In this document: in pieces, positions 33,644 to 60,741 of the stretch
How the letters are laid out: every line of letters starts with the position of its first letter
How positions within the stretch are numbered: position 1 is the stretch's first letter
The notes under the pieces: generated by a model
What the model saw: the letters and a program-made list of their open reading frames with translations, nothing else
Told to the model about the DNA's origin: nothing
Database searches by the model: none
Translations under genes and position numbers: made by a program
NCBI GenBank assembly: GCA_030765645.1
Contig: JAVCCE010000074.1
Coordinates: forward strand, 41,551 to 105,550
Reading direction: 5' to 3'
Length of the DNA stretch: 64,000 nt
Origin: Candidatus Hinthialibacter antarcticus
GTDB taxonomy: Bacteria; Hinthialibacterota; Hinthialibacteria; Hinthialibacterales; Hinthialibacteraceae

Positions 33644-33714
33644 GGCGGCTTAGCCAAGTGGTAAGGCAGAGGACTGCAAATTCTCTATCCCCGGTTCGAA
33701 TCCGGGAGCCGCCT
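33644..33714 (+). tRNA. tRNA-Cys (anticodon GCA).
   Basis: Acceptor stem GGCGGCT/AGCCGCC, D-arm 'TAGCCAAGTGGTAAGGC', anticodon stem GAGGA/TTCTC with loop CTGCAAA, T-arm CCGGGTTCGAATCCCGG, discriminator T. CCA is not encoded. Confidence 0.85.
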
Positions 33715-33763: not shown

Positions 33764-35080
33764 CTATGTGATATCCTCTTCCTCATCACCTTCCTCCACG
33801 TCATCTAGTGCGGTAGGAAAATTAATCAATTTTGATGCTTCTGAATTTGGTAATTGCTCAACCGTGCGCAAAGCTCTCTCCATTGCCCGTCTCCTCACAT
33901 CAGTCCTTTCAACAGTTTTGGTTGCAGTATTTAACTGTTTTTTTATCTTTTCCAATACATCGCCAAACTTACCAAATTCTGTCTTAACCGCACCCAATAC
34001 CCTCCAAACCTCTACCGCCTGTTGTTCAATGGCTAACGTCTGAAATCCCATGCGAAGGCTGCTCAGGAGCGCCGCCAAAGTAGTGGGGCCTGCAATGACA
34101 ACCCGGTATCGATTCTGAAGATCTGCAACAACGTCTGGCTGCCGAAGAATCTCTGCGTATAAACCCTCCGTCGCTAGAAACATAATTCCAAAGTCAGTTG
34201 TGTAAGGCGGATTAACATACTTATCATGGATGTCTTTTGCGGCGACTCGAACTGCCTTCGCCAAGCCGTCTACCGCCGACTGGACAGAATCTAGATCGGC
34301 TGTGTCTGCTGCTTCTTGGAGACGATTATAGTCTTCCTGTGGAAATTTCGAATCAATCGGAAGCCAAATACAAGCCTCGGGATCATCTTTAGGCCCTGGC
34401 AATCGAACGGCAAACTCAACCCGCTCTTGTGAATTCTCCTTAACCTGGACATTCTTTGCGAATTGTTCTGGATTAAGAATCTGCTCTAAGATCGCTCCAA
34501 GTTGGACCTCGGCCCACGTTCCGCGCGCTTTCACATTGGTCAGAACCCTCTTTAAGTCTCCAACGCCCGTGGCTAATTTTTGCATCTCCCCTAAACCAGT
34601 ATGCACAGCCTCAAGTCTTTCACTCACCTGTTTGAATGACTCACCAAGCCGTTTTTCTAAAGTTGCGTGTAACTTCTCATCCACGGTCTTGCGCATCTGT
34701 TCGAGTTTTTTTTCATTATTTTCCTGAAGCTCTTTGACTCGGGAATCAAATGTCGTCCGAATCCGTTCCAATGTTGCATGATTGGATTCGGTTAATTCCT
34801 TCAGCTGTTTCGTCATCGAATCAAGTCGCTCTTTTTGGACTTTTCCTAGACTGTCCAATGTTCTTGATAGCATATCGTTCGTTGACTTAAGCCCAGCCGA
34901 TACTTCTTCTCGTAATTCTTTACCCGAGTTTCTTGATTCTTCTCGCCCGAGTCGAAGTTCTTCGCGCACTTCTTTCCCAACTTCTTTCAGACCTTTTGGC
35001 CCTCTAGCGATCAATACAATTACAGCGATCAAAGTTAACGCGGCGATGATTAGGGTCAGCAGCAGCAGGTCTTCATTCAT
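33764..35080 (-). CDS. rmuC: DNA recombination protein RmuC.
   Basis: N-terminal TM helix, a long coiled-coil with many 'EL..E' heptads, and a C-terminal RmuC nuclease-like region ('GIMFLATEGLYAEILRQPDV', 'RVVIAGPTTLAALLSSL'). Confidence 0.8.
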   Translation of the reverse strand: MNEDLLLLTLIIAALTLIAVIVLIARGPKGLKEVGKEVREELRLGREESRNSGKELREEVSAGLKSTNDMLSRTLDSLGKVQKERLDSMTKQLKELTESNHATLERIRTTFDSRVKELQENNEKKLEQMRKTVDEKLHATLEKRLGESFKQVSERLEAVHTGLGEMQKLATGVGDLKRVLTNVKARGTWAEVQLGAILEQILNPEQFAKNVQVKENSQERVEFAVRLPGPKDDPEACIWLPIDSKFPQEDYNRLQEAADTADLDSVQSAVDGLAKAVRVAAKDIHDKYVNPPYTTDFGIMFLATEGLYAEILRQPDVVADLQNRYRVVIAGPTTLAALLSSLRMGFQTLAIEQQAVEVWRVLGAVKTEFGKFGDVLEKIKKQLNTATKTVERTDVRRRAMERALRTVEQLPNSEASKLINFPTALDDVEEGDEEEDIT

Positions 35081-45535: not shown

Positions 45536-46663
45536 ATGGACCAACGGCCTTTAAACCTGTTCATCTCCGTCGGCGAAGAGTCTGCTGACCATCACGGGGC
45601 GCATGTCGTTGAAGCGCTTCGTCAAATGCAGCCTGACATCAAGTGGTTCGGCTTTGGCGGCAAAGCGCTTAAGCAACAAGGCGTCGACATCCTCTACCCG
45701 TTGCCCGACTTGGCGTTGATTGGTTTTGTTGAGGTCATCAAACGCCTGCCGACCCTGTTTCATGTACGCGCCATTGCAGAAAAATCCTGGGACGAGCGCA
45801 AACCCGACGCCGTCATTCTGATCGACTACCCCGGCTTTCACCTGCACCTCGCCAAGCGGGCGCAGGAACGCGGCATTCCCGTGTTTTATTACATCGCCCC
45901 CCAGGCCTGGGCCTGGCGCGAGAAGCGGGTCGAAACCATGCGCGAAACCATCAAGCGCCTGTTTGTGATTTTTCCTTTTGAGGAACACTTTTTTCAATCG
46001 CGCGGCGTCGATGCGCAGTTTGTCGGTCACCCGTTGCTTGACCGCATCCCGCCGACCCCGGCGCAAGATCGGGCGCCGCTCGAACGCCCCGTGGTCGGGC
46101 TTCTGCCCGGCAGCCGCAAGAACGAACTCAAGCGCTTGCTGCCGACCTTACTCAGCGCGGCGAAACGGTTGCGAAAACAAAAACCCGAGACGCAGTTTTT
46201 CTTACCGCTCGCTGAAACGCTACCGGAATCTTTTTTGCAGAATTTTGATCTTCCCGATTGGTTAGAGGTAGGACGCGACCCCGATTATGCGCGGCGCAAA
46301 CAACTGACCTTCGCCTGGACGGCGTCGGGCACGGCAACCATGGAAAACGCGCTGCTGGGCCTGCCGATGGCGGTGGTCTACCGCAGCGGCGCCGTCAACG
46401 CATTTCTGGCGAGGCGGCTCATCCGCGTGCCGTATATTGGTATGGTGAATTTGATTGCGCAAAAAGGCATCTGCCCGGAGTTCATCCAGGAACAATGCCA
46501 CCCCGAACAACTCGCCCGCCATGCAGAAGAGTTTCTCAGCGACGCGCAACGCTATCAGGAAATGATTGACGACCTCAACGCCCTGCGCCAAAAACTCGGC
46601 GGCGAAAACGCAGCGCAACGCGCGGCGCAAGCCATTCACGCCGCCATTCTTGAGACGCTCTAG
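45536..46663 (+). CDS. lpxB: Lipid-A-disaccharide synthase.
   Basis: 'LFISVGEESADHHGA' N-terminus. 'LLPGSRKNE' conserved GT19 motif. 375 aa. Confidence 0.9.
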   Translation: MDQRPLNLFISVGEESADHHGAHVVEALRQMQPDIKWFGFGGKALKQQGVDILYPLPDLALIGFVEVIKRLPTLFHVRAIAEKSWDERKPDAVILIDYPGFHLHLAKRAQERGIPVFYYIAPQAWAWREKRVETMRETIKRLFVIFPFEEHFFQSRGVDAQFVGHPLLDRIPPTPAQDRAPLERPVVGLLPGSRKNELKRLLPTLLSAAKRLRKQKPETQFFLPLAETLPESFLQNFDLPDWLEVGRDPDYARRKQLTFAWTASGTATMENALLGLPMAVVYRSGAVNAFLARRLIRVPYIGMVNLIAQKGICPEFIQEQCHPEQLARHAEEFLSDAQRYQEMIDDLNALRQKLGGENAAQRAAQAIHAAILETL

Positions 46664-47925
46664 ACCGAAGCAGAAGGACGCTCAGTCGCGACCAAGCCGT
46701 ACAAATCCTTGAGCAAGTAGTACACAAACATCAACAGAAACGAAATCATACCCGTCGCGAGAACAATCAAACTGCGGCGCGGATACACCTTTTTGGGGTC
46801 AGGAATCGCATAATACGCGACTTTCAAATCTTGACGCTCTGAGGCGACGGTGGTTCCCGCCCAGTCAAAATTTTTCTCGATGCCAGCCACCACTTCAAGC
46901 GCCTGGCTCCAGTAGCGCTTTGATTCGGTCTCTTCGACATCAAGCCGAAAGAACTGCTCTTGTTGTTCGATGACCAACGCTTCCAGCCGCGCGATTTCTT
47001 TTTTCATTGATTCAAACTTGGCTTTCATCGCGGGCAGGTCAATCGTGAGTTTTATATATTCCGACCGTAATTGATAATAAATACCATTGATCGTTTCTTC
47101 AATGTAGCCCATGCCGGTCAGATCTTCGATTGACTGATTTGGCTTGGCCTCTTCAAGTTGATTTAATACCGTATTGTTACTGAAAATGCTGCGTTTCACT
47201 TGCAAGATTTTCTCAGGCGCATCGGTGGCGGAAAAGACTTTTTCAAAATATTCCTGCCGCGTCTCGAGTTCGCGGATGGAGTGGACCAGCGTGTCATGTT
47301 GTTGCCGAAGCGTGGCCAGAATAGTGTTATTGGTATCCAACTCGTTTTGTAGCAACGGCAGTTTATTTTTAACCAGCAAGTCGCGATAGTCGATTTGGTA
47401 ACGCATCGTCTGCTCTTGAATGGGAGTGAGTTCTTGTTGAATAAAACGGCGGCTGTTGTCTTTTTCTTCCATAATAATCTCATTGTTCAGTTGCAGTGCG
47501 CGGTTGGCGAGTTGGTTGGCGACGAGTGCGGCGAATTCGGGGTCTTCAAGTTCAACGCTTAGTTGAATCCGGGAAGACTTCTCGTTACTTCGAATTGCCA
47601 CGCGCCCAGCCAGCGCATTGATATGTTTAAGCCCAAACGGCTCTTCGCTCAAGCGGAATTCATCTATCACGTCCTGCAAAACCGTATCCGCCAGAAAGAG
47701 TTCCGAGTAAGTGTCCATCGTCATGCCCGGAAACATCATCGCCCGCTCGCCGATCTTCGAGTTCATCACCACCAGATCAACTTCGGCGCGGTAGCGGTTA
47801 TGGATCGTGTAAGAAAACGCGGCGGCCAATACCATGCACACCAGCGAAATAATCGCCATCATTCGGCCCCGGCGCCAGATCACCTCAAGGATCGATGCGA
47901 GTTGAATTTCGTGCTCCACGCTCAT
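46660..47925 (-). CDS. Polysaccharide co-polymerase / chain-length-determinant-like protein (Wzz/GumC/ExoP N-terminal type).
   Basis: N-terminal TM, then a long periplasmic coiled coil, then a C-terminal TM ('IVLATGMISFLLMFVYYLL'). Topology and length fit PCP family 1. The call rests on architecture only. Confidence 0.5.
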   Translation of the reverse strand: MSVEHEIQLASILEVIWRRGRMMAIISLVCMVLAAAFSYTIHNRYRAEVDLVVMNSKIGERAMMFPGMTMDTYSELFLADTVLQDVIDEFRLSEEPFGLKHINALAGRVAIRSNEKSSRIQLSVELEDPEFAALVANQLANRALQLNNEIIMEEKDNSRRFIQQELTPIQEQTMRYQIDYRDLLVKNKLPLLQNELDTNNTILATLRQQHDTLVHSIRELETRQEYFEKVFSATDAPEKILQVKRSIFSNNTVLNQLEEAKPNQSIEDLTGMGYIEETINGIYYQLRSEYIKLTIDLPAMKAKFESMKKEIARLEALVIEQQEQFFRLDVEETESKRYWSQALEVVAGIEKNFDWAGTTVASERQDLKVAYYAIPDPKKVYPRRSLIVLATGMISFLLMFVYYLLKDLYGLVATERPSASV

Positions 47926-47954
47926 TTCGGTTCCTTTCTGAAAAACGCCGACGA

Positions 47955-49121
47955 CTACTGCGGACGTGAACTGCTAAATGAAGGCGGAGACGGAATCGCC
48001 AACACCGGAGCAGGCGTAACGCTCGCGGGGTTAGGCAATTGTTGGCGAAGCGCTTCTTGATGAATTTTAACCTGATAGGTGTCGCGCAATGATTCGCGCC
48101 AGGCTTCGAGCCGCTCCTGCATCATCATTTGCGGAAGCAGGGCTTGCACCGGCGGCGCTTCAAACGGTTGGACGCCGACCGACTGTTTCTCTTTCACCAA
48201 AAAGAAACCATAGCCATTCACGCAAGCGACCACGGGCGACAGTTCGCCTTCAGGCGTCTTGAGAACCTCCGCCACAAATTCCGCGCCGTAGGCGTTATCA
48301 ATTCCTTCTGCGTGATACAGGATGCAGTAGCCGTAGTTATACGAGCCGTCAGGCGTGTCAGAATATTGATACGCATATTGCTGCATCACTTTTCGCTTGC
48401 CAGTAAAATCGGTCGCTGACGCAATCAACGCCTGCACTTGGGCGTGAAGGTCTAAGGTTTTTTCTTTGGCTTCTTCAAGCGTCTGGTCGTCTTTGGCTTC
48501 AATCACCACGCGGTTAATCATTGACCGCGCGGGCGGCGTAAACTTGTCGATCTGCGATTCATAATACGCTTTCAATACGTCCGGCGTGAGCGAATCGCGG
48601 ATGCGTTGTTTTTGATCTTCCATACAAACGCGCCCCAGCTGAATGTTGCCTAAAATGCCAACCAGTTGGTCTTCGGTCTGGTTGGCTTCCTGGATGTGTT
48701 TTTGATATTCTTCTTCGGTCTCAAATTGCCCTTTGAATTCACGCAGCAACACTTCTTTTTCCGCGTCGGTCAAACCAAGGTCGCGCACGCGCGCTTCTTC
48801 GATCAACAAATAATTATCGAGAAGCATGTTCACCATCGACTCGCGCTTTTGCGCAATCACGTCTTCCCACTCGATATTTTCTTGCAGCCGATAGGTCGCC
48901 ATCATTTGTTCGGGGTGAACAATATTGTCGATGTCAGACAAATAAATCGTCCCGCCGCTCCACTCAGCGACCGCGAGATCATTGGCCCGGGTTCCGTTTT
49001 TCTGGGGCGAATCCGGCGCGGCGGCCGCGGGAGATTTCTCATTGGTTGGGGAGCCGGGACCGCACGATATCAATCCGATTGAAATGAATAAGGATAAAAC
49101 CGCAACACAAAATGCTCTCAT
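47955..49121 (-). CDS. Lipoprotein peptidyl-prolyl cis-trans isomerase (SurA-like N-region plus PpiC/parvulin domain).
   Basis: Lipobox 'LISC'. Parvulin-type C-terminal region 'SPVVACVNGYGFFLVKEK'. SurA-like chaperone helical N-region. Confidence 0.55.
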   Translation of the reverse strand: MRAFCVAVLSLFISIGLISCGPGSPTNEKSPAAAAPDSPQKNGTRANDLAVAEWSGGTIYLSDIDNIVHPEQMMATYRLQENIEWEDVIAQKRESMVNMLLDNYLLIEEARVRDLGLTDAEKEVLLREFKGQFETEEEYQKHIQEANQTEDQLVGILGNIQLGRVCMEDQKQRIRDSLTPDVLKAYYESQIDKFTPPARSMINRVVIEAKDDQTLEEAKEKTLDLHAQVQALIASATDFTGKRKVMQQYAYQYSDTPDGSYNYGYCILYHAEGIDNAYGAEFVAEVLKTPEGELSPVVACVNGYGFFLVKEKQSVGVQPFEAPPVQALLPQMMMQERLEAWRESLRDTYQVKIHQEALRQQLPNPASVTPAPVLAIPSPPSFSSSRPQ

Positions 49122-49161
49122 ACTGATGACGCACCTGCCCTTACAATCAAAGTGTCAAAAC

Positions 49162-50079
49162 TCAATTTGAATCCTCATCACTGAGGATGCGCTTCGCAGG
49201 CCCCACGTCGTTCGCCTGTAGATAGGTTTCGTAGTCGGGCATGGGTTCTGATGGATGAAACTGTTGCCAGTATTTTCTAAAATTGACTTTTTGCTCGTCC
49301 AAAGTGCTATTGGTCGCCGTTTTTCCATACATCATTTGTTCGCGCTGAAAAACGCGCCCATGTTTTTCCTGATAGTCTTGCATGGCTTTTTGTTGTTGCT
49401 GCGCCGTAATTTTCGTCGGCATCTGATAGCCGGGCAGCGGCTCATAATTCTGGCTGAGCGCTTTAAATTTATCGCCAAACCGTTTGAGGTAATATTCGTA
49501 AGCCTCGACTTGTTCGTCACGGGTCAAGGCGCGGGGATTCTTCCTCACGTCATCGAAAAATTCGGGCTTCTTCGCCAAACGCAGCGCAAAAGCGGCCTCG
49601 CCCATGTGCAGCGTCACTTGGTCTTCCGACACTTGATGGACAGTGATTCCCGTTTCTAACGTCTGGCCTTCAAAGACGATAAAATATTCGCTGGTGCGCG
49701 TCTTTTGAATGGTGCCGTTTTTCTTTTGGCCCAACTGTGAAAAGTTGACGTAGATCCAATCATTCACCAGCGACAACAAGCGCGCTTTATCATTGATTTC
49801 GTCTGACGGTGGAACATAAGGCTCAGCCGCCATCGTCGTCGGCGGCGTGAAGAGATCATCCTGAAGGATAACCGCCGCGTCCTTCAATTCGGGAAACAAC
49901 TCAAGGATGGAGTCGCTGCCTCGCCCGCCGGGCGCGAGCGGACGCGGTTGTTCAGCCAAGGCAATCCGCGGCGCCTCCACCGTGGACGTCACTGGCGCCG
50001 TAGGTTTAAAAACGGTAATCGCCACGACCGCAGCGACTAAAACACAAGAAAAAACAACCAGAACGATGCGCATTGGCAC
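49162..50079 (-). CDS. Hypothetical membrane-anchored/secreted protein.
   Basis: N-terminal hydrophobic anchor 'IVLVVFSCVLVAAVVAITVF'. Gln-rich C-terminal half. Same strand as the giant protein and the PPIase. Confidence 0.4.
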   Translation of the reverse strand: MPMRIVLVVFSCVLVAAVVAITVFKPTAPVTSTVEAPRIALAEQPRPLAPGGRGSDSILELFPELKDAAVILQDDLFTPPTTMAAEPYVPPSDEINDKARLLSLVNDWIYVNFSQLGQKKNGTIQKTRTSEYFIVFEGQTLETGITVHQVSEDQVTLHMGEAAFALRLAKKPEFFDDVRKNPRALTRDEQVEAYEYYLKRFGDKFKALSQNYEPLPGYQMPTKITAQQQQKAMQDYQEKHGRVFQREQMMYGKTATNSTLDEQKVNFRKYWQQFHPSEPMPDYETYLQANDVGPAKRILSDEDSN

Positions 50080-50293
50080 TCTCCATCTGAACTTAAATAT
50101 TGTTCAGTTACGCGAAAGGTAGTGTATCACGGGCGCCGCTGCAAACAACAGATTCAGCGTACATCCCCCAGATTGGCCTCCGCATTTTTATTCGCGCGGC
50201 CTCAACTCACCATACAATCACGATTTCAGCCAAAAAAAGTAACGGCGCCTCGAAACCGAGGCGCCGTGAAAATGCGTCATCAAACGGAGCGGC

Positions 50294-53200
50294 TTAGAAA
50301 TTACCCGGCAAGATGAAGTCGTCCTGATAACGATATTCAAACAACCCAAGCGCAAAGTCTAACGCTTCCGTGTCAAACTGGACATCATCAGGAATCTGAA
50401 TAAAGCCGTAGTGTTTTCCGTCACGGGTAATGACAAAGTATGACCGCCCCGGAATATAAGTCGCCTCGTGGCCGATGAAATCAACTTCGCCTGTATCAAA
50501 CGGATTGGCCAGCACCATTGAATGCGTCAGAGAATTCACGATCGTTTCAGGATCCAGCGAATAAATATCGATTCCCTCGGGAAGCATCATAATTGCGCTG
50601 CGCGGATCAGGCGTAATAAACGTACCATCACCCATAACGAGGTCCGCATCCGCAGAGAAGACGGCGAATACAGGGCCGCGCTGATCAAACGAGAAGCCCC
50701 ACGGTTGTTCGACTTCAAGATCGGTAATTTCTGAAAGCACGGTTTCATCGAGTCCGTCGAAGAAGTCAAAATCACCGTCATTTTCAGCGAGAACAATTCT
50801 CGAACTCATGCTGCTCATACGAAACTGACCGTCAGCCGATTTCTTATAAATGATCTCAACGCGGTTTAAGCCGAGAGTGCTCAAAAACGTACCAGGATAC
50901 CAGGCGATTTCGAGAACGGGCTGCGTACGCGAACGGCGCAAGAACTGCTCACGGTGAATGAACAACAATGCGTATTGTTCAAACTGGTTCAGTTCAGGCA
51001 CTTCAATAAACATCGGCTTATCAACACCAGCGTTCTTAGGCGCATAGGTCGCAATCAATTTGTTCCCTGAGAGCCGCGTCAGTTCATTGTAGATTGAAAA
51101 TTCGGGATCTTCGCTGCCTGAAGTTTCTTCAAACATACGACCGAAGTTTTTGATTAAATAGACGTCAATCAACCAGGCGCGCCCATCAAGAACTTCACGA
51201 ATCCGCAACGTCTGGCCTTCCGCCGGGCGGTTGTCGACAAAGAACATTCTCGCGACGGTTTCGCCAGCAACGGCGCTATCTGTAATATCTACCGCCTGAT
51301 ACTCACAAATTGGCAGGTAGTATGACATATCGAGTAGCAGGTTGGCGCGAATCGTATCGCCTTCGTTCAACAGCGTGAAAGAGTTTTCGATCCCTTTCGA
51401 TTGCGTAATCGAAATTACTTCGGTGAGATCGAAAAACGAGTTGAGCGATTTTTTTAATCCATTAACATCGGCGCCCTGCTTATCTAAATAGCCCGGGGCC
51501 GCATGAGAAACGATCCGCTTGGCGTCTTCAGAATTAAGCGCGTCGATGATGTCATACGTGGTTGCAATAACCGATTGGAGATTGACGTTTCCGGTTTCGA
51601 CATCAACCACGGCGTCGTCATCCAGGCCCGGTGTATCCGCAAAGACAAACGCGTCGGAGGGAATCTCTGACCTTGGAATTTCATTTACGCCAAAGTAGTG
51701 AATTTCACCGCTGCCTTCAACCAGAATGTAACGGTCAGTAACGCCGGGGAAGACTTTGACCTGGCGGACTGTGCCCGGGTCAATCACTTCGCTTGGCAAT
51801 TGCGGTTGGAAAACGGCTGAGCGCAAGTTCGTTCCCGAACCGGCCCCAGTCACGCGGATGCCGCCGTCTTTGTTTACAATCACAACATTGGTTGCGGTGT
51901 TTTCTTTGACAACCAATTCGATGTCGGTGTAGAAGTTAACGTCTTCCTTCAAGTCGCTCCACACAATGTTGTTGACATTGTTGGCAAGCGTCAGAACGCC
52001 GTTGCCGGTCAGGAAGTACATATCATCGGCGCGCGGCGTGAGTTCCATGTCGCGATAGATATCCAACCCGACTGCGGGCGGACGCAACGCCGTGTTGGCC
52101 TTGCTGCCTAAGAAGAGCATATCGCCATCGCCGTCGAGAACGTAAATTGCGCCATTGGCGTAATCGACCTCAACGTCGCGGACGTTTTCAAGCGCGATCT
52201 GGGCCGCTGTCGGCGCAACAATCAACTGAGCGCCTTCAACCGAATTTTTGAGGAACGCCGTGTTTTCGCTCTTGAACGCCAACGTGCCATTGGCCTGCAG
52301 CAGCGGCAAAAATACGCCCACATCGCCAGCAGCCAAAACCCCACCGCTGCGTTGTACGCCTATCATGCCGGTAAAGGATGAATTGGGTTCAATGTCGACA
52401 ACGATGTCGGTTGTGGTCAAATCACCTAACGATGGTAAATCGCCAAGGCTGAAGGTGCGGCCATCGCTTAGTGCTTTGACCATATCAATCTTGTTCGGCA
52501 ATTCGCCATCAACAGAAATCAAGCCCGTCGATGGATCGTTGCCGCCAGAATCAACCGTGCGCGCCAGTGTGATAATGGGGCCGTCAGCGTAGGTATAAAC
52601 CAGCGGGTTTACGCCATCGTCTACGCGGGCGTAGATGTAATACTCTTGGGTCGGGTCAAAGTCAGGAATTTGGTCTAGCAGTCTCAAAGTAAACGAATTG
52701 GCCAACCCGACTTGCGGACGGACTAACGAACCGCCGATAAATGTTCCATCAAACCCGATGCCGTTATCATCGACAAACAAAGCGACTTGCGGCGAATCGT
52801 CAGGGTCTTGAACAACATACGAAATCTGATAGGTAAAGTCTGAGGTCGCGATGTTCGCCCCTGATGTTGGCGACTGGAACGTGATGCGAGGAGAAACATT
52901 TTGGCTTTGAACAACAATTTCCCCTGTCGTTAATTGTGACTTACTGATTCCACGGAACGGTTCCGTTTCAATATAGTCCGTGTTTAAGAACGAGTGATAC
53001 GCAATTCCGCCTTCAGGCGAATCAACATTAATGAAAGAACCATCATCGGTATCGAAGAACGAATACTGGGCGCCCAATTCACCTGAACGCATACGGACGC
53101 GGAACGAGTCGCCGACTTTAGCGAGCTGCGACATGCGCAACGTCACAAAGAAGTCGTTGCCAGCGAGAGGCCCGAAGTTTTCATCAGGAATCTGAATCTG

Positions 53201-56200
53201 ATACATATAGGATGTATCGTAATCGCCGGTCTCATGCCAGTTTGAAATTCCAATCGCGCTATAGGGGTGTTGGAAGGCCACTTCAACCGGATCGGGAACA
53301 TCGGGATATTCCGCTGCTTCGCCCGAGTCAGCCGCTTCGGCGTCAGCGTCAGCCACTTCCTGGTTGTAGTTATCAATGTTTTCAAGCGCACTTTCAACAG
53401 CGTCGCCAAAGGTATCGAAGAAGTCGTCTAAATAGTCGCCTATCGTATTGTTGTCGCCCAAGAATGTGTAATGACCAAACTGGGTATAAATTGGCACGTC
53501 CGGCTGGTCTGGACCGATTGGGTCGTTCGCATTTTCAGCAAACTCGGCCTCAACGCCAACCACCATCGGAACCTGGCCCACTTTTACGAAGCCGTATTGA
53601 CTTGGGAACCGCAAGGCGGATGCGAGTGAAAGCAAGAACGACCGGCGAATATCGCCGTCAGGATCGCGTACCCACGGGATATTGTCTTCATCAAGATCGC
53701 CAAACGTCAGCATCCAAAATTCTTCGCCGTCGGGGGTGACCACTTTCAGGTCTTCGGAATATAACCCTTCTGCGTTGATGGAAGGATACAAATCAATCAA
53801 GCCCATACGCGGATCAAGCGTCGGGAACATGCCCTGGTTATAGCGCGGCGAGCCAAAGTCCGGCGCCGGATCGCCTCTAAACGGACGCGAACCACGGAAC
53901 GGGTAGATTAAACTGCGGATGGTTTGGTAGAGCGAGAAGTTCAAAACGCGGAAGTCTAACTCTGCAAACCATGAGCCTTCGCCAACGCGCAACGGTAAAA
54001 TCTGGCCGTCAACTCTATCAAAAGGCGTATCCGCCGGCTCGATGGAAGTGATATATTCTTCAAATTTGGCCAGGTTATTGGGCGGAAATACATACGCCGC
54101 TTGCGCAAACCCTCCGGTTGAGCCGAACTGGTCTCGAGTAAAGGGCATGTAACGGTCATTGGCGTCAAACACGCCGTTCTCGCCTGCCGGAGTTAAATCA
54201 CCTAAATCTTCATCGATCAGACCATCGCCGTCGTCGTCCTGCAAGTTGTAAAGTTCTTCGTCAAACAGGCCGTCGCCGTCGTTATCCCGGTTATCGCCTG
54301 TCGGTGTATCGTCATCCTGATAAATAGCAATTGAGTGAGACGTTGCAATAAACGGCCCGGTTTGCGTGACGCCCAATTCAAGAGGAATCACAGAGAACAA
54401 CGCGGCAAGCGCAGTGAGCGTGGTGCCCGGCAAGAAGTCAACTTGCATTTCTCCAAGAACAGTGCTCTCAGTAAAGAACGCATCCAGCAGATCAAAACTG
54501 ACGCCTTCGCCGTTCAGCAACAAGGTCGGGTTCTGACCAAAGTCAATCGCGTCGATGCCGACAACGGCTTTGGGCGGCGACGACAAGGTGCGATCAAAAA
54601 TAACATTGTTATTGCTTGCATTTACGCCTTCGCCCGGCTGGGTGAGGTCTTGAAACGAAAAACGGGGACGTGGACGCCCAATCAGCGGGGTGGTTGAACT
54701 CGTGTTGGGACGCCCCATACCCACGCTGGATACCGACTCAAATTCGCTTTCATCTGTCGCGCCCGCAGCATATGACGCAAGGCCCGAACCGACGATGACA
54801 TCTGTCGGCTGAATGAATGGAATAATTGAATCGAGGCTGCGGACTTTATCGCTCGTTTTAACGGCCAAGTACATTTCAGGGCCGCCGTTGGCGCCAGCGC
54901 GCGTGTTCGGAGAGCGCAAGTCGCCGACCGCATTGTTACGCGAAACAGGCATTGTGATGGTAAAGCCTTGGAGCAATGGGAAATTATAAAGATCAAGCAA
55001 ATTGGATTTTTCGTTGCCCGACAACGAGGTCAAATAACGCACTTGACCTTCGGTCAGCCCTAAAAACGGGCGGGAGATGTTAATCAACTGGTCAAACATC
55101 ATGCAATCGGGGTCTTGGAAGCACTCTAACGAACCCAATGGCGGGCGAATGATCCCGTCCGCGATTGATTCGTCGCTAATGCTCGAAATCAGATCGGCAG
55201 GTAATCCAGCCAATGCGCTAGACAAATCGGAGTCGCTAAACAACCAGGGAATGACGCGTTTCGCTGCCGTGCCGCCCACGCTGCCTGGAATCATACGCTC
55301 AAGCACTTTTTGAAGCGCCGGATTGGCCGCAACGTCATCAGCGGTGATATCAAACGGGCTAATTTCTAATTGTGACGGATCAAGCGCAATGACGCGATCA
55401 ACGCCATTATCAAATTTGCCCGCCTGACCGCCGATTTCACGATACAAGAAGATGCCGCCGGCTGCGCGTTCAAGCGGTTTCAAGAAAATATCCTGGTTGG
55501 TGGTGTGAGTCGGTTCGAGGCCTGATGAACCAAACGGACGCGGGCCGTAAGGAACATAGCTCAATACATGCGAATTTAAATTGTCATTTCCCGTAAAGAA
55601 CGCCTCGCGCGGGATGCCCGCAAAATTCAGCGGCATGGTCTTGGGATACGAAATGGGCTCTTCGCCCCCGACGTTGCGCTCTTCCATCCAAATCATGCCC
55701 GGGTTTTCAGGGTCTTCCGGGAAATTATAGAAGAACGGGTTATAGAAGTACGTCGGACGAAGAACGCTCGCAAATGATTGACCGCCAAAGTTTATGCCGG
55801 TTCCAATCGCGCTAATTAAGTGGGCGACGGACGCAAGGTTTAAACCGACGAAATTCACTTTCACTTCTTTAATGAAATAATCTTCATCCGGCCGACCGAC
55901 AAAATCAAAGCCAAGCAAAGTACGCGCTTCTGACTTCGCGTCGATACGGAACGAGTTGTCGGTGTCTTTAATTAAGTTGACGATTTGAACGATGTCGCCC
56001 TGGAATATCTGGCGCTCTGCAAAGAGCGGGTTCAAGCCGACAAACGCGTCGTCAGGAAACGGCGTTTCATAGAGCGTATTTTTGGGCAGCGGGTTCCTGC
56101 GGTCGCGAATCTTGATACTGTTCGCTGGAATCATTGCCTCGAAGCGGTCGCCCTGGCGCCAGTTTAATGTCGTTTGTACGACAATATGGAAATCGGGGTG

Positions 56201-56737
56201 ACTGTCTTGGATCAGGGGAACCCGCGAAGATGACGACCCCGACACGGGTTTAAATGTTATGAAAAACCGACGCGAATTGGTCGGGTCTACCTGCACTGTC
56301 GGTATATCAATCAAGTTGACGGGAATATCGCTGCTCGGATCATTCGCAAAATAACTAAAACTATCGGGCTGGGCCGAACTCTCTTGATAAAGCGCAACGC
56401 CGCTTGAGAGCGCCGAAGCCGACAATGGCAAGAAGTCTTCTGCGATATCGAGACCCGCATTGCCATCGGTTAAATCCTCAATGACAATGGTCAGTTCTTC
56501 GATCTCTTGCAATCTTGGAATAGGAATCTGGCTTCCTTCGTTCCCAATTGCGGATAACGGAAAACTGAGAACCGCTGTTCGCACAGAAAGCGGCGAGATG
56601 CCCAACGGAATGATCACGTCCTCATCGTCTTGAGCGAATGAAGGCAACGCAAACGACGCTGCCACAACGATAAGCGCGAGTCCCCAAACAAGTCCGGCGG
56701 GGAAAATACGGGAGTTTTTCTTCATCTGGCTGCTCAT
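50294..56737 (-). CDS. Giant secreted protein (2147 aa) with thrombospondin-type-3-like Ca-binding Asp repeats. Function unknown.
   Basis: SD AAAGAGG with a 7-nt spacer before ATG (MSSQMKKNSRIF...), then the signal peptide 'LVWGLALIVVAASFALPSFA'. 'DDDTPTGDNRDNDGDGLFDEE...DDDGDGLIDEDLGD' follows the DxDxDGxxDxxD pattern. Long beta-rich regions. Confidence 0.7.
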   Translation of the reverse strand: MSSQMKKNSRIFPAGLVWGLALIVVAASFALPSFAQDDEDVIIPLGISPLSVRTAVLSFPLSAIGNEGSQIPIPRLQEIEELTIVIEDLTDGNAGLDIAEDFLPLSASALSSGVALYQESSAQPDSFSYFANDPSSDIPVNLIDIPTVQVDPTNSRRFFITFKPVSGSSSSRVPLIQDSHPDFHIVVQTTLNWRQGDRFEAMIPANSIKIRDRRNPLPKNTLYETPFPDDAFVGLNPLFAERQIFQGDIVQIVNLIKDTDNSFRIDAKSEARTLLGFDFVGRPDEDYFIKEVKVNFVGLNLASVAHLISAIGTGINFGGQSFASVLRPTYFYNPFFYNFPEDPENPGMIWMEERNVGGEEPISYPKTMPLNFAGIPREAFFTGNDNLNSHVLSYVPYGPRPFGSSGLEPTHTTNQDIFLKPLERAAGGIFLYREIGGQAGKFDNGVDRVIALDPSQLEISPFDITADDVAANPALQKVLERMIPGSVGGTAAKRVIPWLFSDSDLSSALAGLPADLISSISDESIADGIIRPPLGSLECFQDPDCMMFDQLINISRPFLGLTEGQVRYLTSLSGNEKSNLLDLYNFPLLQGFTITMPVSRNNAVGDLRSPNTRAGANGGPEMYLAVKTSDKVRSLDSIIPFIQPTDVIVGSGLASYAAGATDESEFESVSSVGMGRPNTSSTTPLIGRPRPRFSFQDLTQPGEGVNASNNNVIFDRTLSSPPKAVVGIDAIDFGQNPTLLLNGEGVSFDLLDAFFTESTVLGEMQVDFLPGTTLTALAALFSVIPLELGVTQTGPFIATSHSIAIYQDDDTPTGDNRDNDGDGLFDEELYNLQDDDGDGLIDEDLGDLTPAGENGVFDANDRYMPFTRDQFGSTGGFAQAAYVFPPNNLAKFEEYITSIEPADTPFDRVDGQILPLRVGEGSWFAELDFRVLNFSLYQTIRSLIYPFRGSRPFRGDPAPDFGSPRYNQGMFPTLDPRMGLIDLYPSINAEGLYSEDLKVVTPDGEEFWMLTFGDLDEDNIPWVRDPDGDIRRSFLLSLASALRFPSQYGFVKVGQVPMVVGVEAEFAENANDPIGPDQPDVPIYTQFGHYTFLGDNNTIGDYLDDFFDTFGDAVESALENIDNYNQEVADADAEAADSGEAAEYPDVPDPVEVAFQHPYSAIGISNWHETGDYDTSYMYQIQIPDENFGPLAGNDFFVTLRMSQLAKVGDSFRVRMRSGELGAQYSFFDTDDGSFINVDSPEGGIAYHSFLNTDYIETEPFRGISKSQLTTGEIVVQSQNVSPRITFQSPTSGANIATSDFTYQISYVVQDPDDSPQVALFVDDNGIGFDGTFIGGSLVRPQVGLANSFTLRLLDQIPDFDPTQEYYIYARVDDGVNPLVYTYADGPIITLARTVDSGGNDPSTGLISVDGELPNKIDMVKALSDGRTFSLGDLPSLGDLTTTDIVVDIEPNSSFTGMIGVQRSGGVLAAGDVGVFLPLLQANGTLAFKSENTAFLKNSVEGAQLIVAPTAAQIALENVRDVEVDYANGAIYVLDGDGDMLFLGSKANTALRPPAVGLDIYRDMELTPRADDMYFLTGNGVLTLANNVNNIVWSDLKEDVNFYTDIELVVKENTATNVVIVNKDGGIRVTGAGSGTNLRSAVFQPQLPSEVIDPGTVRQVKVFPGVTDRYILVEGSGEIHYFGVNEIPRSEIPSDAFVFADTPGLDDDAVVDVETGNVNLQSVIATTYDIIDALNSEDAKRIVSHAAPGYLDKQGADVNGLKKSLNSFFDLTEVISITQSKGIENSFTLLNEGDTIRANLLLDMSYYLPICEYQAVDITDSAVAGETVARMFFVDNRPAEGQTLRIREVLDGRAWLIDVYLIKNFGRMFEETSGSEDPEFSIYNELTRLSGNKLIATYAPKNAGVDKPMFIEVPELNQFEQYALLFIHREQFLRRSRTQPVLEIAWYPGTFLSTLGLNRVEIIYKKSADGQFRMSSMSSRIVLAENDGDFDFFDGLDETVLSEITDLEVEQPWGFSFDQRGPVFAVFSADADLVMGDGTFITPDPRSAIMMLPEGIDIYSLDPETIVNSLTHSMVLANPFDTGEVDFIGHEATYIPGRSYFVITRDGKHYGFIQIPDDVQFDTEALDFALGLFEYRYQDDFILPGNF

Positions 56738-57316
56738 GGAAAAACCTCTTTGTAGTTGGATCACTGACTCTTCTACCCTTTGATCGCCCTGGGAAAACTT
56801 GCGCGGAGTCTCGTCGCAAATTGCCCATAAAAAGCGCCCTATATACAGACACCTAACGGCCCACAGGGCGCAAACCGTCCCTCAGGCTCCAGCCCGATCT
56901 TTCTAACTATCCAAGATACAGACAGTTATTCATACCGGTTCAATTGTATATGCTGCCGTAACTATATAATGCGGCTATAAATAGTGTCAAGTTGAGCGGA
57001 TTCATCTCCACCACTTCCAACGGTGCAAAATCGTCAAATTCATAACAGCCAAAAATCACAAAAATCCATCAAAATTCTCGTTATAGCCGCATCAGGATGA
57101 TACCCGACGTTTTAAGTCAACTCTATTCGAGTCACCTTGCGATAGTAACACATTTTTTTTTCTCTGCCCAAAACCCCTATTTTTCGGGAAAAAACAAGTT
57201 TTTTTTGACTTTCTCACGAAAACGAATTGACGAAACCATAACAGGCTTTAAGATTATACCAACGATAATTTTTGATTCGGTCAAACTGGCCTTGTTTTAT
57301 GCCAACGGAGGGTAAC

Positions 57317-58951
57317 GTGGACGAAATTCGTCCCCCAAAATCCACACGATTTATTTTTGTTACAGGGGGCGTCTGCTCTTCGCTCGGCAAGGGCGTGGCG
57401 TGCGCCTCGATGGGCTGCTTGCTTGAAGCGCGCGGTCACACCGTCGCGCTGCAGAAGTATGACCCATATATTAATGTTGATCCGGGCACCATGAGCCCCT
57501 ACCAACACGGCGAGGTCTATGTCACCGACGACGGCGCCGAAACCGACCTCGACCTCGGTTATTACGAACGCTTCACCTCATGCACCATCACCCGTAAGTC
57601 AAGCATTTCTACTGGACAGATCTATGACGCCGTCATCAAACGCGAACGCCGCGGCGGCTATCTAGGCAAAACCGTCCAGCTAATTCCACACATTACCGAT
57701 GAGATCAAACGCCGCATCTATGATGTAGCCGACCAACAAAAGCCCGACTTCCAAATCTGTGAAATCGGCGGCACCGTCGGCGACATCGAAGGCTACCCGT
57801 TTCTCGAAGCCATTCGACAGGTCGAGTGGGAACTCGGGCGCGAACGCGTCTTATTTGTCCACTTGACTCTCGTACCAGTCATTTCTGTGGCGGGCGAAGT
57901 CAAAACCAAGCCCACTCAACACAGCGTCAACAAGCTTCGCGAAATCGGCATCCAGCCCGCGATTTTGCTATGTCGTACGTCGGTTGCGCTCAACCGCGAG
58001 ATGAAAGACAAGATCGCGCTGTTCTGCAATATCCCGTCTCATGCGGTGGTCAGCGCCCGCGATATCCAATCAACCATTTATGAAATCCCCATTGCTTACC
58101 GCGACGAGGGGCTTGATAAATTGGTCGTCGATTACTTTAAAGTCGGCAATGGGCCGCCCGAACTGCGCGAATGGAAGCGCATTGTTTCCTGCATCAAAAA
58201 CCCGCGCAAAGGCCCGGTGACAATCGCCGTCGTTGGAAAATACATCCGGCTGCAAGACGCTTACCGCTCCATCTATGACGCACTCATCCACGGCGGCGTC
58301 GCCAATAACGCCCGGGTCAACATCCTGCCGGTTCATGCGGAAGAGATCGAGAAAAAAGGCGCGCATGAGCTCCTCAAGGACGCCGATGCGATTTTAGTCC
58401 CATGGGGATTCGGAAAACGCGGTACGCTGGGCAAAGTGCAAACCATTGAATACGCCCGCAAGAACAACGTCCCCTTCTTTGGCATCTGCCTGGGGATGCA
58501 ATGCAGCGTGGTGGAGTTTGGCCGCAACCAACTGAAAATGGACAACGCTTCCAGCACGGAATTTGAACCGGACACCGATTTCCCTGTCATCAGTTTGATG
58601 GATGAACAACGCCGCGTTGTCGACAAAGGCGGCACCATGCGGCTGGGCGCTTACCCCTGCGTCCTGAAAAAAGGCACCAAAGCCCGCGCGGCCTATGGCG
58701 AAGATGAAATTTCAGAACGCCATCGCCACCGCTGGGAATTCAACAATGATTTCCGCGAAGCCTACGAAAAAGCGGGCTTCATCATTAGCGGTTCGTCGCC
58801 GGACGGACACCTGGTTGAAATCGTGGAGTTGAAAGACCACCCCTGGTTTGTCGGTTGCCAGTTCCACCCCGAGCTGAAATCACGTCCGCGAACGCCTCAC
58901 CCATTATTTAAGGCGTTTATCAAAGCCGCGCTCAAAAAACAAGAAGCCTAA
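57317..58951 (+). CDS. pyrG: CTP synthase.
   Basis: GTG start 4 nt after GGAGGG gives 'VDEIRPPKSTRFIFVTGGVCSSLGKG' (compare E. coli 'MTTNYIFVTGGVVSSLGKG'). The C-terminal GATase domain reads 'GICLGMQ'. Confidence 0.9.
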   Translation: MDEIRPPKSTRFIFVTGGVCSSLGKGVACASMGCLLEARGHTVALQKYDPYINVDPGTMSPYQHGEVYVTDDGAETDLDLGYYERFTSCTITRKSSISTGQIYDAVIKRERRGGYLGKTVQLIPHITDEIKRRIYDVADQQKPDFQICEIGGTVGDIEGYPFLEAIRQVEWELGRERVLFVHLTLVPVISVAGEVKTKPTQHSVNKLREIGIQPAILLCRTSVALNREMKDKIALFCNIPSHAVVSARDIQSTIYEIPIAYRDEGLDKLVVDYFKVGNGPPELREWKRIVSCIKNPRKGPVTIAVVGKYIRLQDAYRSIYDALIHGGVANNARVNILPVHAEEIEKKGAHELLKDADAILVPWGFGKRGTLGKVQTIEYARKNNVPFFGICLGMQCSVVEFGRNQLKMDNASSTEFEPDTDFPVISLMDEQRRVVDKGGTMRLGAYPCVLKKGTKARAAYGEDEISERHRHRWEFNNDFREAYEKAGFIISGSSPDGHLVEIVELKDHPWFVGCQFHPELKSRPRTPHPLFKAFIKAALKKQEA

Positions 58952-59341: not shown

Positions 59342-59452
59342 TTCAACCAAACAAATAACCGTTCAATTCTTCCCAAATGGTAAGTTTGGGAGGGCGAGGC
59401 TCCCGCCGAGCCGCGAACAACCAAACAAATAACCGTTCAATTTTTCCCAATT
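59342..59452 (+). promoter_or_regulatory. Two 37-bp direct repeats (CAACCAAACAAATAACCGTTCAATT(c/t)TTCCCAA) about 74 bp apart, upstream of speH-speE. The second overlaps a candidate promoter (TTCAAT-16nt-CATAAT).
   Basis: 59342-59378 and 59416-59452 are 35/37 identical. Whether they are operator sites is unknown. Confidence 0.35.
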
Positions 59453-59502
59453 TGAGTCATAATGAGCGTTTGCTACACGACTCGTTGAAGGAAACAGACC
59501 GA

Positions 59503-60741
59503 ATGACCGAACCCACTGCCTATCCCTCAGGCACAGACCTGCGTCTTCTTCTACAAAATTGCCAATGCGGCGACGATTTAATGCGAAAACCGGGCGCCGC
59601 ATCGCCGCTGGTGCGAAAGGCCATTCAGTCGGTCGGCTTTCAGGATTTAACCGAAGCCAATTACGCCTTTGACGAAGGCGGCTATACCCTGGCGATTGTT
59701 CTCGCCGAGTCGCATCTCGTGATTCACACCTGGCCTGAATTTGACAATTTAGTTTTGGTCGATATCAGCGTTTGCAACTACCTGCGGCCCAACCGCGAAC
59801 GCACGCTGCAATTGGGTGAAGAGGTCTGTCGGGTGTTTCAGCCCAAACAACATCTCGTCGAAGAAAGCAGCATGGCGCCGCGCCTGCAAGACAAACTCAT
59901 CGCCGGCCACGGCTACTATGTCGAGATCGACAAACTGGTCGACTCGCGCAAGAGCGAATTTCAATCTATCACGGTGGCGGACACCCCGGTGTTTGGACGT
60001 TCTTTGGTGATCGACGGCGTGTTGCAGGTCAGCGAAGCCGACAGCGCGTTTTATCATGAGCCGCTAGTGCATGTACCGCTGCTGGCGCACCCCAACCCGC
60101 AATCCGTCATGATCTGCGGCGGGGGCGACGGCGTCGCCGCCAAAGATGCGCTGCTGCATCCTTCGGTCGAGCGCTGCGTGATTGTGGATATCGACCCCGA
60201 AGTGGTTGAGGTCTCGCGCCAGACGCTGCAAACGCTTCACCAGGGCGCGCTCGACGACCCGCGCGTGGAAATTCGCATTCAGAACGCCAAAGAACACCTC
60301 GCCCATCTTGATAGAAAATACGACGTGATCTTAATTGACAGCACTGATCCGGTCGGCTGCGGCGAGGCGTTATTTACCCAAGACTTTTACCAGAACCTGT
60401 CGCGCTGTCTGGCGGACGACGGCTGGCTGAGCCTGCATGTAGGTTCGCCTTATATTATAGAAGCAGAGTCGGCCCGCGCGGCGGCCAAAGTCTATCAGGC
60501 CTTCCATCGCGCCGACCCGTATTTGCAATACGTCCCCAGTTACGCATCGGTGATGGGTTTTATGCTGTGCCAGAACCGCGACGAGCGGCTGCCCGGCCCC
60601 GGCGCCATTCAAGAACGCATCGAAGAACGCGGCCTCGACAAACTCGAGCTGCTTACGCCGGAAACCTACGCCGCGATGTTTGCCATCCCGCCCAAATTGC
60701 GCCATGTGTTCCCTCATGTCGCGTCGCGGGTTTTCGCGTAA
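59503..60741 (+). CDS. Fused S-adenosylmethionine decarboxylase (SpeH-type proenzyme) and spermidine synthase (aminopropyltransferase).
   Basis: N-terminal 'LAIVLAESHLVIHTWPE' is the SpeH self-cleavage ES/HTWPE motif. C-terminal 'VMICGGGDGVAAKDAL', 'VIVDIDPEVVEV' and 'ILIDSTDP' are spermidine-synthase motifs. SD AAGGAA with a 9-nt spacer before the ATG at 59503. Confidence 0.8.
   Translation: MTEPTAYPSGTDLRLLLQNCQCGDDLMRKPGAASPLVRKAIQSVGFQDLTEANYAFDEGGYTLAIVLAESHLVIHTWPEFDNLVLVDISVCNYLRPNRERTLQLGEEVCRVFQPKQHLVEESSMAPRLQDKLIAGHGYYVEIDKLVDSRKSEFQSITVADTPVFGRSLVIDGVLQVSEADSAFYHEPLVHVPLLAHPNPQSVMICGGGDGVAAKDALLHPSVERCVIVDIDPEVVEVSRQTLQTLHQGALDDPRVEIRIQNAKEHLAHLDRKYDVILIDSTDPVGCGEALFTQDFYQNLSRCLADDGWLSLHVGSPYIIEAESARAAAKVYQAFHRADPYLQYVPSYASVMGFMLCQNRDERLPGPGAIQERIEERGLDKLELLTPETYAAMFAIPPKLRHVFPHVASRVFA

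Follow-up and report, generated by a model that had tools for sequence, protein, structure and literature searches.

What ties the gene for a giant secreted protein to the three genes that follow it on the minus strand of a bacterial genome? The genes in question lie within 64,000 nucleotides of Candidatus Hinthialibacter antarcticus (assembly GCA_030765645.1, contig JAVCCE010000074.1, positions 41,551 to 105,550; this whole stretch is the window), and the product of the giant open reading frame (ORF) matches NCBI protein P9L94_19240, from the metagenome-assembled genome of that organism, with 100% identity. The host is the type of the candidate phylum Hinthialibacterota (OLB16), once placed in Omnitrophota, and has been predicted to degrade polymers and to attach to detritus (PMC9324843). 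An earlier interpretation made from the letters alone (the sequence-only reading) had described four co-directional minus-strand genes for a 2147-amino-acid (aa) giant, a membrane-anchored protein (p305 below), a peptidyl-prolyl isomerase (PPIase)-like lipoprotein and a Wzz-like membrane protein, and all four ORFs were found where it had placed them. Judged by gene content and order among relatives, these four genes form a real, co-inherited, lineage-specific cell-envelope module.

The evidence for this lies in the contexts fetched for eight orthologues of the giant, 43-57% identical to the window protein. The giant, a ~310-aa gene and a ~385-aa PPIase-like gene are adjacent and in this order in all eight orthologous loci, and the Wzz-like gene comes next in six of them, although these loci span at least three differing flanking contexts. 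The window module lies between pyrG, divergent on the giant side, and lpxB, a convergent gene whose end overlaps that of the Wzz-like gene by 4 nt. Locus L002 has kdsB in place of lpxB as the downstream neighbour and still contains the Wzz-like gene. At loci L003 and L008, the flanks consist of glycosyltransferases and a pseudopilin-like gene, with no pyrG, lpxB or Wzz-like gene; a convergent gene of ~370 aa with a T2SSG pseudopilin domain directly follows the PPIase-like gene (L003:18805-19917, L008:16821-17942).

Four deep loci, here called clade B (L005, L013, L014 and L015), were reached through distant matches to the p305 profile. In order, they contain a giant of 2254-2420 aa, two p305-like genes, a gene of 342-385 aa and a Wzz-like gene, and their flanks are unrelated to those of the window, with neither pyrG nor lpxB. 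The clade B giant is 24-34% identical to the window giant in three collinear blocks, the p305-like protein matches p305 at E 1e-6, the 342-385-aa gene product aligns with the C-terminal part of the PPIase-like protein (28% identity, E 5e-8), and the Wzz-like protein aligns over its full length (21% identity, E 3e-12). That the linkage has been kept through such deep divergence, and in four or more genomic contexts, argues strongly for functional coupling, and the synteny thus upholds the dedicated four-gene module that the sequence-only reading had proposed. The giant was found only in Hinthialibacterota and close relatives, and the function of the module I can only infer. The module genes have a third-position GC content (GC3) of 0.57-0.60 and an effective number of codons (ENC) of 46-51, whereas nearly all window neighbours have GC3 0.61-0.72 and ENC 39-48 (about 42); despite this atypical GC3 and codon bias, the module is ancient in the lineage.

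Could the PPIase-like and Wzz-like genes instead belong to the neighbourhood of lpxB and lipopolysaccharide synthesis, and stand beside the giant by chance? The convergent overlap with lpxB, the separate promoter of the helper genes (below) and the missing Wzz-like gene beside the module in L003 and L008 would fit such an arrangement. However, the helpers stay with the giant beside kdsB (L002), among glycosyltransferases (L003 and L008) and in clade B, where their homology is significant, so that chance adjacency is hardly credible. The sequence-only reading had named this placement in its own refuting condition, and synteny, including locus L002 and clade B, rejects it.

The flanks hold further conserved genes. 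In L001, L002, L004, L006, L007 and L009, two or three conserved genes of ~180-220 aa, none with a Pfam match, lie downstream of pyrG, on the upstream side of the giant, and are usually followed by efp; the window differs, in that pyrG is followed by an S-adenosylmethionine decarboxylase/spermidine synthase gene. In L013:1-2855 and L015:1-2307, a conserved 183-185-aa gene and the gene of a very large FG-GAP-repeat protein directly precede the giant. The tandem duplication of p305 is a feature of clade B, and in L013 a prepilin peptidase (A24) gene stands two genes past the Wzz-like gene.

Is the module then a single operon, as the sequence-only reading had it? That reading described four genes separated by short gaps, and among the last three the gaps are indeed short (40 bp between p305 and the PPIase-like gene, 29 bp between the latter and the Wzz-like gene), but the giant and p305 are ~215 bp apart, with a strong intrinsic terminator between them (Table 1). 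An equivalent hairpin (dG -18 to -27) with a T-run lies 54-63 nt past the giant stop codon in 9/9 loci, and compensatory changes occur in 5 of the 12 pairs of its stem. Beyond the terminator, 8/9 loci have exactly one TGnTAnnnT, the pattern of a probable extended -10 element, at a distance of 41-145 nt before the ~310-aa gene; in a shuffling control, none of 2000 shuffles had the motif in every region. The conserved terminator, the promoter of the giant gene and the probable internal promoter of the helpers together divide the module into two transcription units, and these signals indicate that the giant gene is monocistronic and insulated and that the helpers form an operon behind it. The single operon-like array has therefore to be given up.

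Table 1. Genes, transcription signals and protein features of the module, in window coordinates (AF2, AlphaFold2; pLDDT, predicted local distance difference test; dG, folding free energy)
Feature	Position	Strand	Details
Giant gene	50294..56737	(-)	coding sequence, 2147 aa from ATG 56737; ORF 50294-56764
p305 gene	49162..50073	(-)	likelier extent, 303 aa from ATG 50073; ORF 49162-50079, 305 aa from GTG
PPIase-like gene	47955..49121	(-)	388-aa ORF
Wzz-like gene	46660..47925	(-)	421-aa ORF
Giant-gene promoter	56961..56990	(-)	near-consensus sigma-70 type; TTGACA 56990-56985, 18-nt spacer, TATAGT 56966-56961
5' leader of giant gene	56738..56954	(-)	~215 nt; ends inferred from promoter position
Intrinsic terminator of giant gene	50232..50267	(-)	11-bp GC-rich stem 50267-50242, dG -24.6, then T-run
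Probable extended -10 promoter element of helper genes	50121..50129	(-)	TGATACACT
Sec-type signal peptide	56633..56737	(-)	aa 1-35, ...ALPSFA|QDD; hydrophobic segment aa 9-36
N-terminal beta-sandwich module	55835..56602	(-)	aa ~46-301; AF2 pLDDT 60-87
Two adjacent Ca2+-loop-like motifs	54203..54286	(-)	DNDGDGLFDEEL, DDDGDGLIDEDL; aa 818-845, DxDxDGxxDE, regex count
Ig-like beta-sandwich	52568..52897	(-)	aa ~1281-1390; AF2 of C-half, pLDDT ~70-80, all-beta
NHL/WD40-like beta-propeller	51668..52420	(-)	aa ~1440-1690
NTF2-like alpha+beta domain	51143..51580	(-)	aa ~1720-1865
C-terminal beta-rich domains	50297..51070	(-)	pLDDT 70-92

The promoter of the giant gene is the sole 11/12 match to the sigma-70 consensus in 46400-57500. 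The pattern TTGACA-N18-TATA[GT]T recurs 220-330 nt 5' of the giant start codon in 9/9 loci, within a conserved block AACTTGACACT...CATTATATAKTTACG, and the region upstream of the gene has a GC content of 0.45, lower than its surroundings. A promoter in an AT-rich upstream region had been predicted, and both the lower GC content and the near-consensus promoter agree with that. The ATG assigned to the giant is the best start in its ORF and a plausible one, with AAGAGG upstream. A leader of 220-330 nt is likewise present in 9/9 loci, with a sequence that diverges between distant loci. I also considered a structured regulatory RNA in the leader and rejected it: the leader has no match in Rfam, folds no better than shuffled sequence (z = -0.49) and shows no sequence conservation between distant loci. 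The conserved signals of the giant gene suggest strong transcription, and the combination of promoter, long leader, good Shine-Dalgarno sequence and strong terminator resembles the layout typical of genes for very abundant envelope or surface proteins.

What kind of protein is produced from this unit? The mature giant has a mass of ~231 kDa, a pI (isoelectric point) of 4.17, 9.3% Asp, 2% Lys and 3 Cys. The signal peptide named by the sequence-only reading is present, as its hydrophobic segment shows, and no other segment of the protein resembles a transmembrane (TM) helix. Neither the single sequence of the giant nor a profile of 15 sequences had a match in Pfam, NCBIfam or PDB, which accords with the earlier statement that it has no recognisable enzymatic domain. 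An exhaustive HMMER search of 1.84e9 representative proteins with a profile of the N-half returned 27 at E<=1e-30 (clade A, here the window and its closer orthologues, a few intermediates, and clade B), and matches beyond these 27 have only the Ca-loop motif or the N-terminal module in common with the giant. A second profile search in a collection of 5.8e9 proteins brought no further family members, and by these searches the giant is an orphan family. The 15 full-length homologues (43-80% identity) are almost free of indels, near-constant in length (2125-2167 aa) and evenly conserved from end to end; between genomes in which pyrG is 79-86% and lpxB 62-67% identical, the giant is 45-57% identical.

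The sequence-only reading had further called the giant a TSP3-repeat protein, and this label does not hold. The strict pattern DxDxDGxxDxxD has zero matches in the giant, the relaxed DxDxDGxxD only two, which are the adjacent loops in Table 1, and no TSP_3 (PF02412) match was found at E<=0.1. The residues of these two loops are invariant in clade A and in the homologue P0016. Internal repeats in the giant have marginal support, with BLAST hinting at three copies of 'PDFxVVxxTSxxLxxGDxF'.

Structure prediction answers only part of the question of what folds the giant contains: it yields Ig-like, NHL-type propeller, NTF2-like and beta-rich parts, but no confident fold over aa ~300-1280. The AF2 model of the N-half, built from a 9-sequence alignment, had a pLDDT of 41 overall and was confident only in the N-terminal module, and a Foldseek search with the N-half model or with the module had no match at E<0.01. 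In the C-terminal 1000 aa, the confident AF2 parts are soluble domains, and aa ~1150-1290 and ~1400-1480 are without a confident model. The protein ends in a tail, [FL]DYRYEDxF[VI]LPxxF-COOH, that is conserved in clade A, and a related tail is found in clade B. The N-terminal module is also carried, at times as tandem copies, by PPC, FG-GAP and VWA proteins and by secreted proteases of the S8 and M10 families (among the HMMER matches, P0058, P0060, P0062, P0063, P0068, P0078 and P0083), and its motifs are SG[VL]A[LI][YF]xD, PDF[HYF]VV[IV]RTS..L..GD.F.V.IP and GI[DN]AVG; the window's own S8 protease is without it. Going by its carriers and motifs, the module is an unnamed extracellular domain family.

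The 388-aa protein scores 35.1 bits with Rotamase_2 of Pfam (cutoff 27), a match that is weaker or absent in several orthologues. SurA_N_3 is matched weakly in the window protein (E 0.04) and, without being marked as weak, in L002, and there is a weak match to Cj1289-like_C. The best PDB match of its profile is 3RGC (Cj1289; E 5e-4), which covers both the chaperone and the parvulin regions, and the lipobox residue Cys20 is invariant in 9 orthologues. A helical N-terminal region, a parvulin domain and a lipoprotein signal are thus all found, as in a SurA-like protein. When the orthologues were aligned by MAFFT to Par10 of E. coli and human Pin1, the positions of Pin1 H59, C113 and H157 were occupied by R/E/W, T/G/A/D and G/A in 9/9 orthologues, all non-catalytic. 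In the hidden Markov model alignment, Cj1289 itself has Glu, not His, at the second-His position; it has been reported active despite this atypical position, and PpiD and SurA P1 are known cases of chaperone parvulin domains without activity (PMC5368265). The loss of the canonical catalytic residues indicates that the 388-aa protein is probably a chaperone rather than a canonical isomerase. Of the dedicated parvulin-type chaperone/PPIase announced by the sequence-only reading, the Rotamase_2/SurA-like fold, the lipobox and the linkage remain, and the catalytic residues do not. Like SurA, PEB4, Cj1289 (SalC), PrsA and PpiD, the protein has a helical chaperone region at its N-terminus and, after it, a single parvulin-like domain, but unlike them it is lipid-anchored, very divergent, without canonical catalytic residues and genetically dedicated to one neighbour, where they are general chaperones.

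A SurA-like partner beside a very large protein raises the further possibility that the giant is an outer-membrane beta-barrel or translocon akin to SprA of the type IX secretion system, which has ~2400 aa and co-purifies with a peptidyl-prolyl isomerase. The giant's size, its conserved C-terminal Phe, its SurA-like partner and an N-half without a confident model would all suit such a role, and SurA-type chaperones serve outer-membrane proteins (PMC5368265). However, the better-modelled C-terminal parts are soluble Ig-like, propeller, NTF2-like and beta-rich domains, no SprA family match was found in Pfam or NCBIfam, the C-terminal tail is without the alternating pattern of an outer-membrane beta-signal, and the giant is extremely acidic; a SprA-like barrel is on this account highly improbable.

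The second helper, p305, is a bitopic inner-membrane protein, in which a TM helix at the N-terminus is joined by a Pro-rich linker to a small beta domain, and a helical region containing three [ST]xEEQxxAxxYYxRYGxxF repeats makes up the C-terminal part; its TM segment confirms the membrane-anchored protein that had been described after the giant. A search of 5.8e9 proteins with its profile returned only 11 clusters, and each member whose context was examined adjoins a giant homologue. Weak HofP matches occur in 7/11 family members, and T2SSB is matched at 14.7 bits. In the order of its parts, from TM anchor to C-terminal domain, p305 resembles GspC of type II secretion systems (T2SS), and its beta domain weakly resembles PilP of type IV pili, whose E. 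coli homologue is HofP; GspC and PilP are inner-membrane adaptors that bind secretins. In contrast to these, its matches are below the gathering cutoff, and its C-terminal triple helical repeat is neither a PDZ domain nor the GspC coiled coil. No secretin, GspE/F or PilMNO genes were found in any flank examined. The likeness of p305 to GspC is a weak resemblance in layout, and membership of that family is not demonstrated.

The third helper was described as a Wzz-like polysaccharide co-polymerase (PCP) protein, and this description stands: the 421-aa protein scores 31.3 bits with Wzz PF02706 (cutoff 25.5) and has TM helices at 19-43 and 383-406, with a long Q/E/L-rich periplasmic region between them and a conserved Pro/Arg-rich motif, KKVYPRRSLIV, before the second. 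PF02706 was also found in the homologues of L009, L013 and L014, and in NCBIfam the protein matches CpsC, EpsF and XrtA-type chain-length determinants weakly, far below the cutoffs. The Wzz domain, the two TM helices, the long, probably helical periplasmic region and the Pro/Arg motif are all shared with known PCP proteins. It differs from them in that no Wzx, Wzy, Wza or BY-kinase (bacterial tyrosine kinase) partner and no polysaccharide cluster is consistently adjacent, and in its linkage to a protein gene, which persists over deep divergence. No Wzx/Wzy-, ABC- (ATP-binding cassette) or Wza-type polysaccharide genes were found when flanks of 6-10 kb were examined around the window module and at 12 related loci, and the polysaccharide-related genes near the module are scattered glycosyltransferases only, in L003, L008 and L013. 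The EpsF and XrtA-type matches prompted a look at sorting by PEP-CTERM/exosortase, which was rejected, as the giant has neither a C-terminal TM helix nor a PEP motif; the association of PCP proteins with that system is itself only a loose one (Haft 2006).

How might these four products work together? In the mechanism that I propose, the first unit would yield the giant alone, as a Sec-exported, acidic, Cys-poor, Ca2+-binding, multidomain and beta-rich protein of 231 kDa, and the second would yield three membrane-anchored helpers that face the periplasm. The SurA/Cj1289-like lipoprotein would keep the giant soluble and aid its folding after its exit from SecYEG. Then p305, by virtue of its GspC/PilP-like layout, could pass the giant on to a channel in the outer membrane, probably a secretin, whose gene would lie elsewhere. 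The PCP/Wzz-like oligomer might serve as a scaffold of periplasmic assembly, or might set the length of a surface glycan, the one that the giant would bind through its N-terminal module and Ca2+ loops. Gene content, conserved linkage, transcription signals, topologies and domain folds are observed; the abundance of the giant, its place at the surface, its dependence on the chaperone, the secretin route and the glycan anchor are proposals.

My preferred reading, a tentative one held at somewhat less than even confidence, is that the giant is an abundant secreted or surface structural protein provided with its own set of proteins for periplasmic handling, export and anchoring. The surface-protein or S-layer/adhesin assembly role suggested by the sequence-only reading is likewise conjectural. 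Among the nearest models are Gram-negative S-layer genes with export or anchoring neighbours, such as Caulobacter rsaA with rsaDE and O-antigen genes, and Aeromonas vapA/ahsA with the secretin-like spsD. As in those loci, a single gene, presumably strongly expressed, for an acidic, probably Ca2+-dependent, Cys-poor secreted protein has its own terminator and is followed by putative export or anchoring genes, and anchoring to a glycan of defined length would provide a role for the Wzz-like protein. The signal peptide, the pI, the few Cys and the strong conserved promoter and terminator of the giant would suit an S-layer protein; the codon bias shows no high-expression signal. The giant has no sequence or fold similarity to any known S-layer protein, is far larger and much more conserved than typical ones, and carries a Sec signal peptide where RsaA has a type I signal.

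Several observations count against an abundant surface structure. In 3/4 clade B loci no terminator is evident behind the giant, and the giant gene, like the helpers, is less codon-biased than its neighbours, which gives no support for very high expression. The proposed export route is weakened by the score of the p305 beta domain against HofP (22.5 bits, E 1e-4, below the cutoff of 24), by the sequence search of PDB with p305, which had no match and recovered no PilP or GspC structure, and by the finding of no secretin or other T2SS core gene within ~10 kb in any locus. The lack of a confident AF2 model for aa ~300-1280 leaves room for an enzymatic or membrane-embedded region. Finally, S-layer proteins usually diverge fast, and the giant is better conserved than would be expected of one, so that it looks more like a machine component.

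This last point leads to the main rival, namely that the giant is a periplasmic or outer-membrane-associated machine part that forms a stable trans-envelope complex with its helpers, such as a tether for the outer membrane or a machine for export or assembly. PCP proteins form periplasmic oligomeric cages, and such a role would suit three helpers that are all membrane-anchored and face the periplasm, a giant that is length-invariant and evenly conserved, a C-terminal tail ending in Phe that is kept in both clades, and the position of the clade A module among envelope-biogenesis genes (lpxB or kdsB, secDF, L,D-transpeptidase). Yet the N-terminal module is common to secreted proteases, the insulated promoter and terminator suggest a stoichiometry of the giant far above that of the helpers, and L003, L008 and clade B have other flanks. 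I regard a machine part as a serious candidate, though a somewhat unlikely one.

The novelty of the arrangement, which the sequence-only reading thought not described as such, is partial. In the related phylum Omnitrophota, giant genes adjoin T2SS-like loci in which a Rotamase_2 PPIase is conserved (West-Roberts et al., bioRxiv 10.1101/2023.11.21.568195), and this 2023 preprint is a precedent, although the present gene set differs. Compared by description, both cases combine a related PVC-type (Planctomycetes-Verrucomicrobia-Chlamydiae) phylum, a very large secreted protein, a Rotamase_2-type PPIase and parts resembling type II/IV secretion, but the Omnitrophota proteins have 10,000-85,000 aa and other domains and are encoded next to clusters of >10 genes with gspD, gspE and gspF, whereas the present module has an orphan of constant length (2147 aa in the window) and no secretin or ATPase nearby, and adds the PCP-like and GspC/PilP-like proteins. 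The kind of system is thus a known one, a large secreted protein with dedicated periplasmic helpers, and what is new is the gene combination and the orphan substrate.

The same precedent raises the question of whether the giant is instead a secreted adhesive or substrate-binding, possibly degradative, protein for particles, polysaccharide or prey, which would leave the cell by a T2SS-like route with the help of a PPIase-type chaperone of its own. It would then be a small counterpart of the Omnitrophota giants. Besides the Omnitrophota association with T2SS-like genes and a Rotamase_2 PPIase (10.1101/2023.11.21.568195), this idea can draw on the NHL propeller, Ig-like and NTF2-like domains, on the sharing of the N-terminal module with extracellular proteases, on the predicted polymer degradation and detritus attachment of the organism (PMC9324843), and on the pseudopilin-like gene that adjoins the module in L003 and L008 and the prepilin peptidase near it in L013. 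However, searches of Pfam, NCBIfam and PDB detected no catalytic or carbohydrate-binding domain, and the giant is apparently single-copy, length-invariant and non-repetitive, unlike typical adhesins. The pseudopilin adjacency may also be chance, because pseudopilin-like genes are numerous in related PVC-type genomes. An adhesin or degradative protein is, all told, unlikely.

A bolder reading is that a PCP/Wzz oligomer, a GspC/PilP-like adaptor and a catalytically dead SurA-like lipoprotein have together been recruited into a new dedicated pathway for the export or assembly of one 231-kDa protein of novel fold, which would form the major surface coat of Hinthialibacterota or a trans-envelope scaffold, with the PCP protein acting on protein and not on polysaccharide. 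I consider this reading decidedly doubtful.

Hinthialibacterota (OLB16) has no cultured member, and its cell envelope is uncharacterised. Lineage-wide conservation, signals that suggest strong transcription and an orphan protein of 231 kDa make the module a good contender for the principal envelope structure specific to this lineage, which would be a target for cryo-electron tomography and possibly an antigen or marker for cell sorting. The module would serve as a test case for whether PCP-fold and GspC/PilP-like proteins are able to take part in protein export, and the N-terminal module is a candidate for a new family of surface-anchoring or targeting domains. If the giant is only a chaperone-assisted secreted adhesin, the locus would modestly extend the Omnitrophota report on giant genes.

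Elsewhere in the window, an RmuC-family gene whose codon usage is highly atypical (33764-35080, minus strand; GC3 0.43, ENC 57) lies beside tRNA-Cys (33644-33714), the sole tRNA gene in the window, and may be a horizontally acquired insertion. An IS200-type Y1 transposase ORF (PF01797) is at 18390-18947 on the minus strand, and two large ORFs, of 488 aa at 18-1484 (plus strand) and of 781 aa at 1544-3889 (minus strand), have no Pfam match at E<=1e-5. In the 454-aa ORF at 59377-60741 (plus strand), domains of S-adenosylmethionine decarboxylase and of spermidine synthase appear to be fused.

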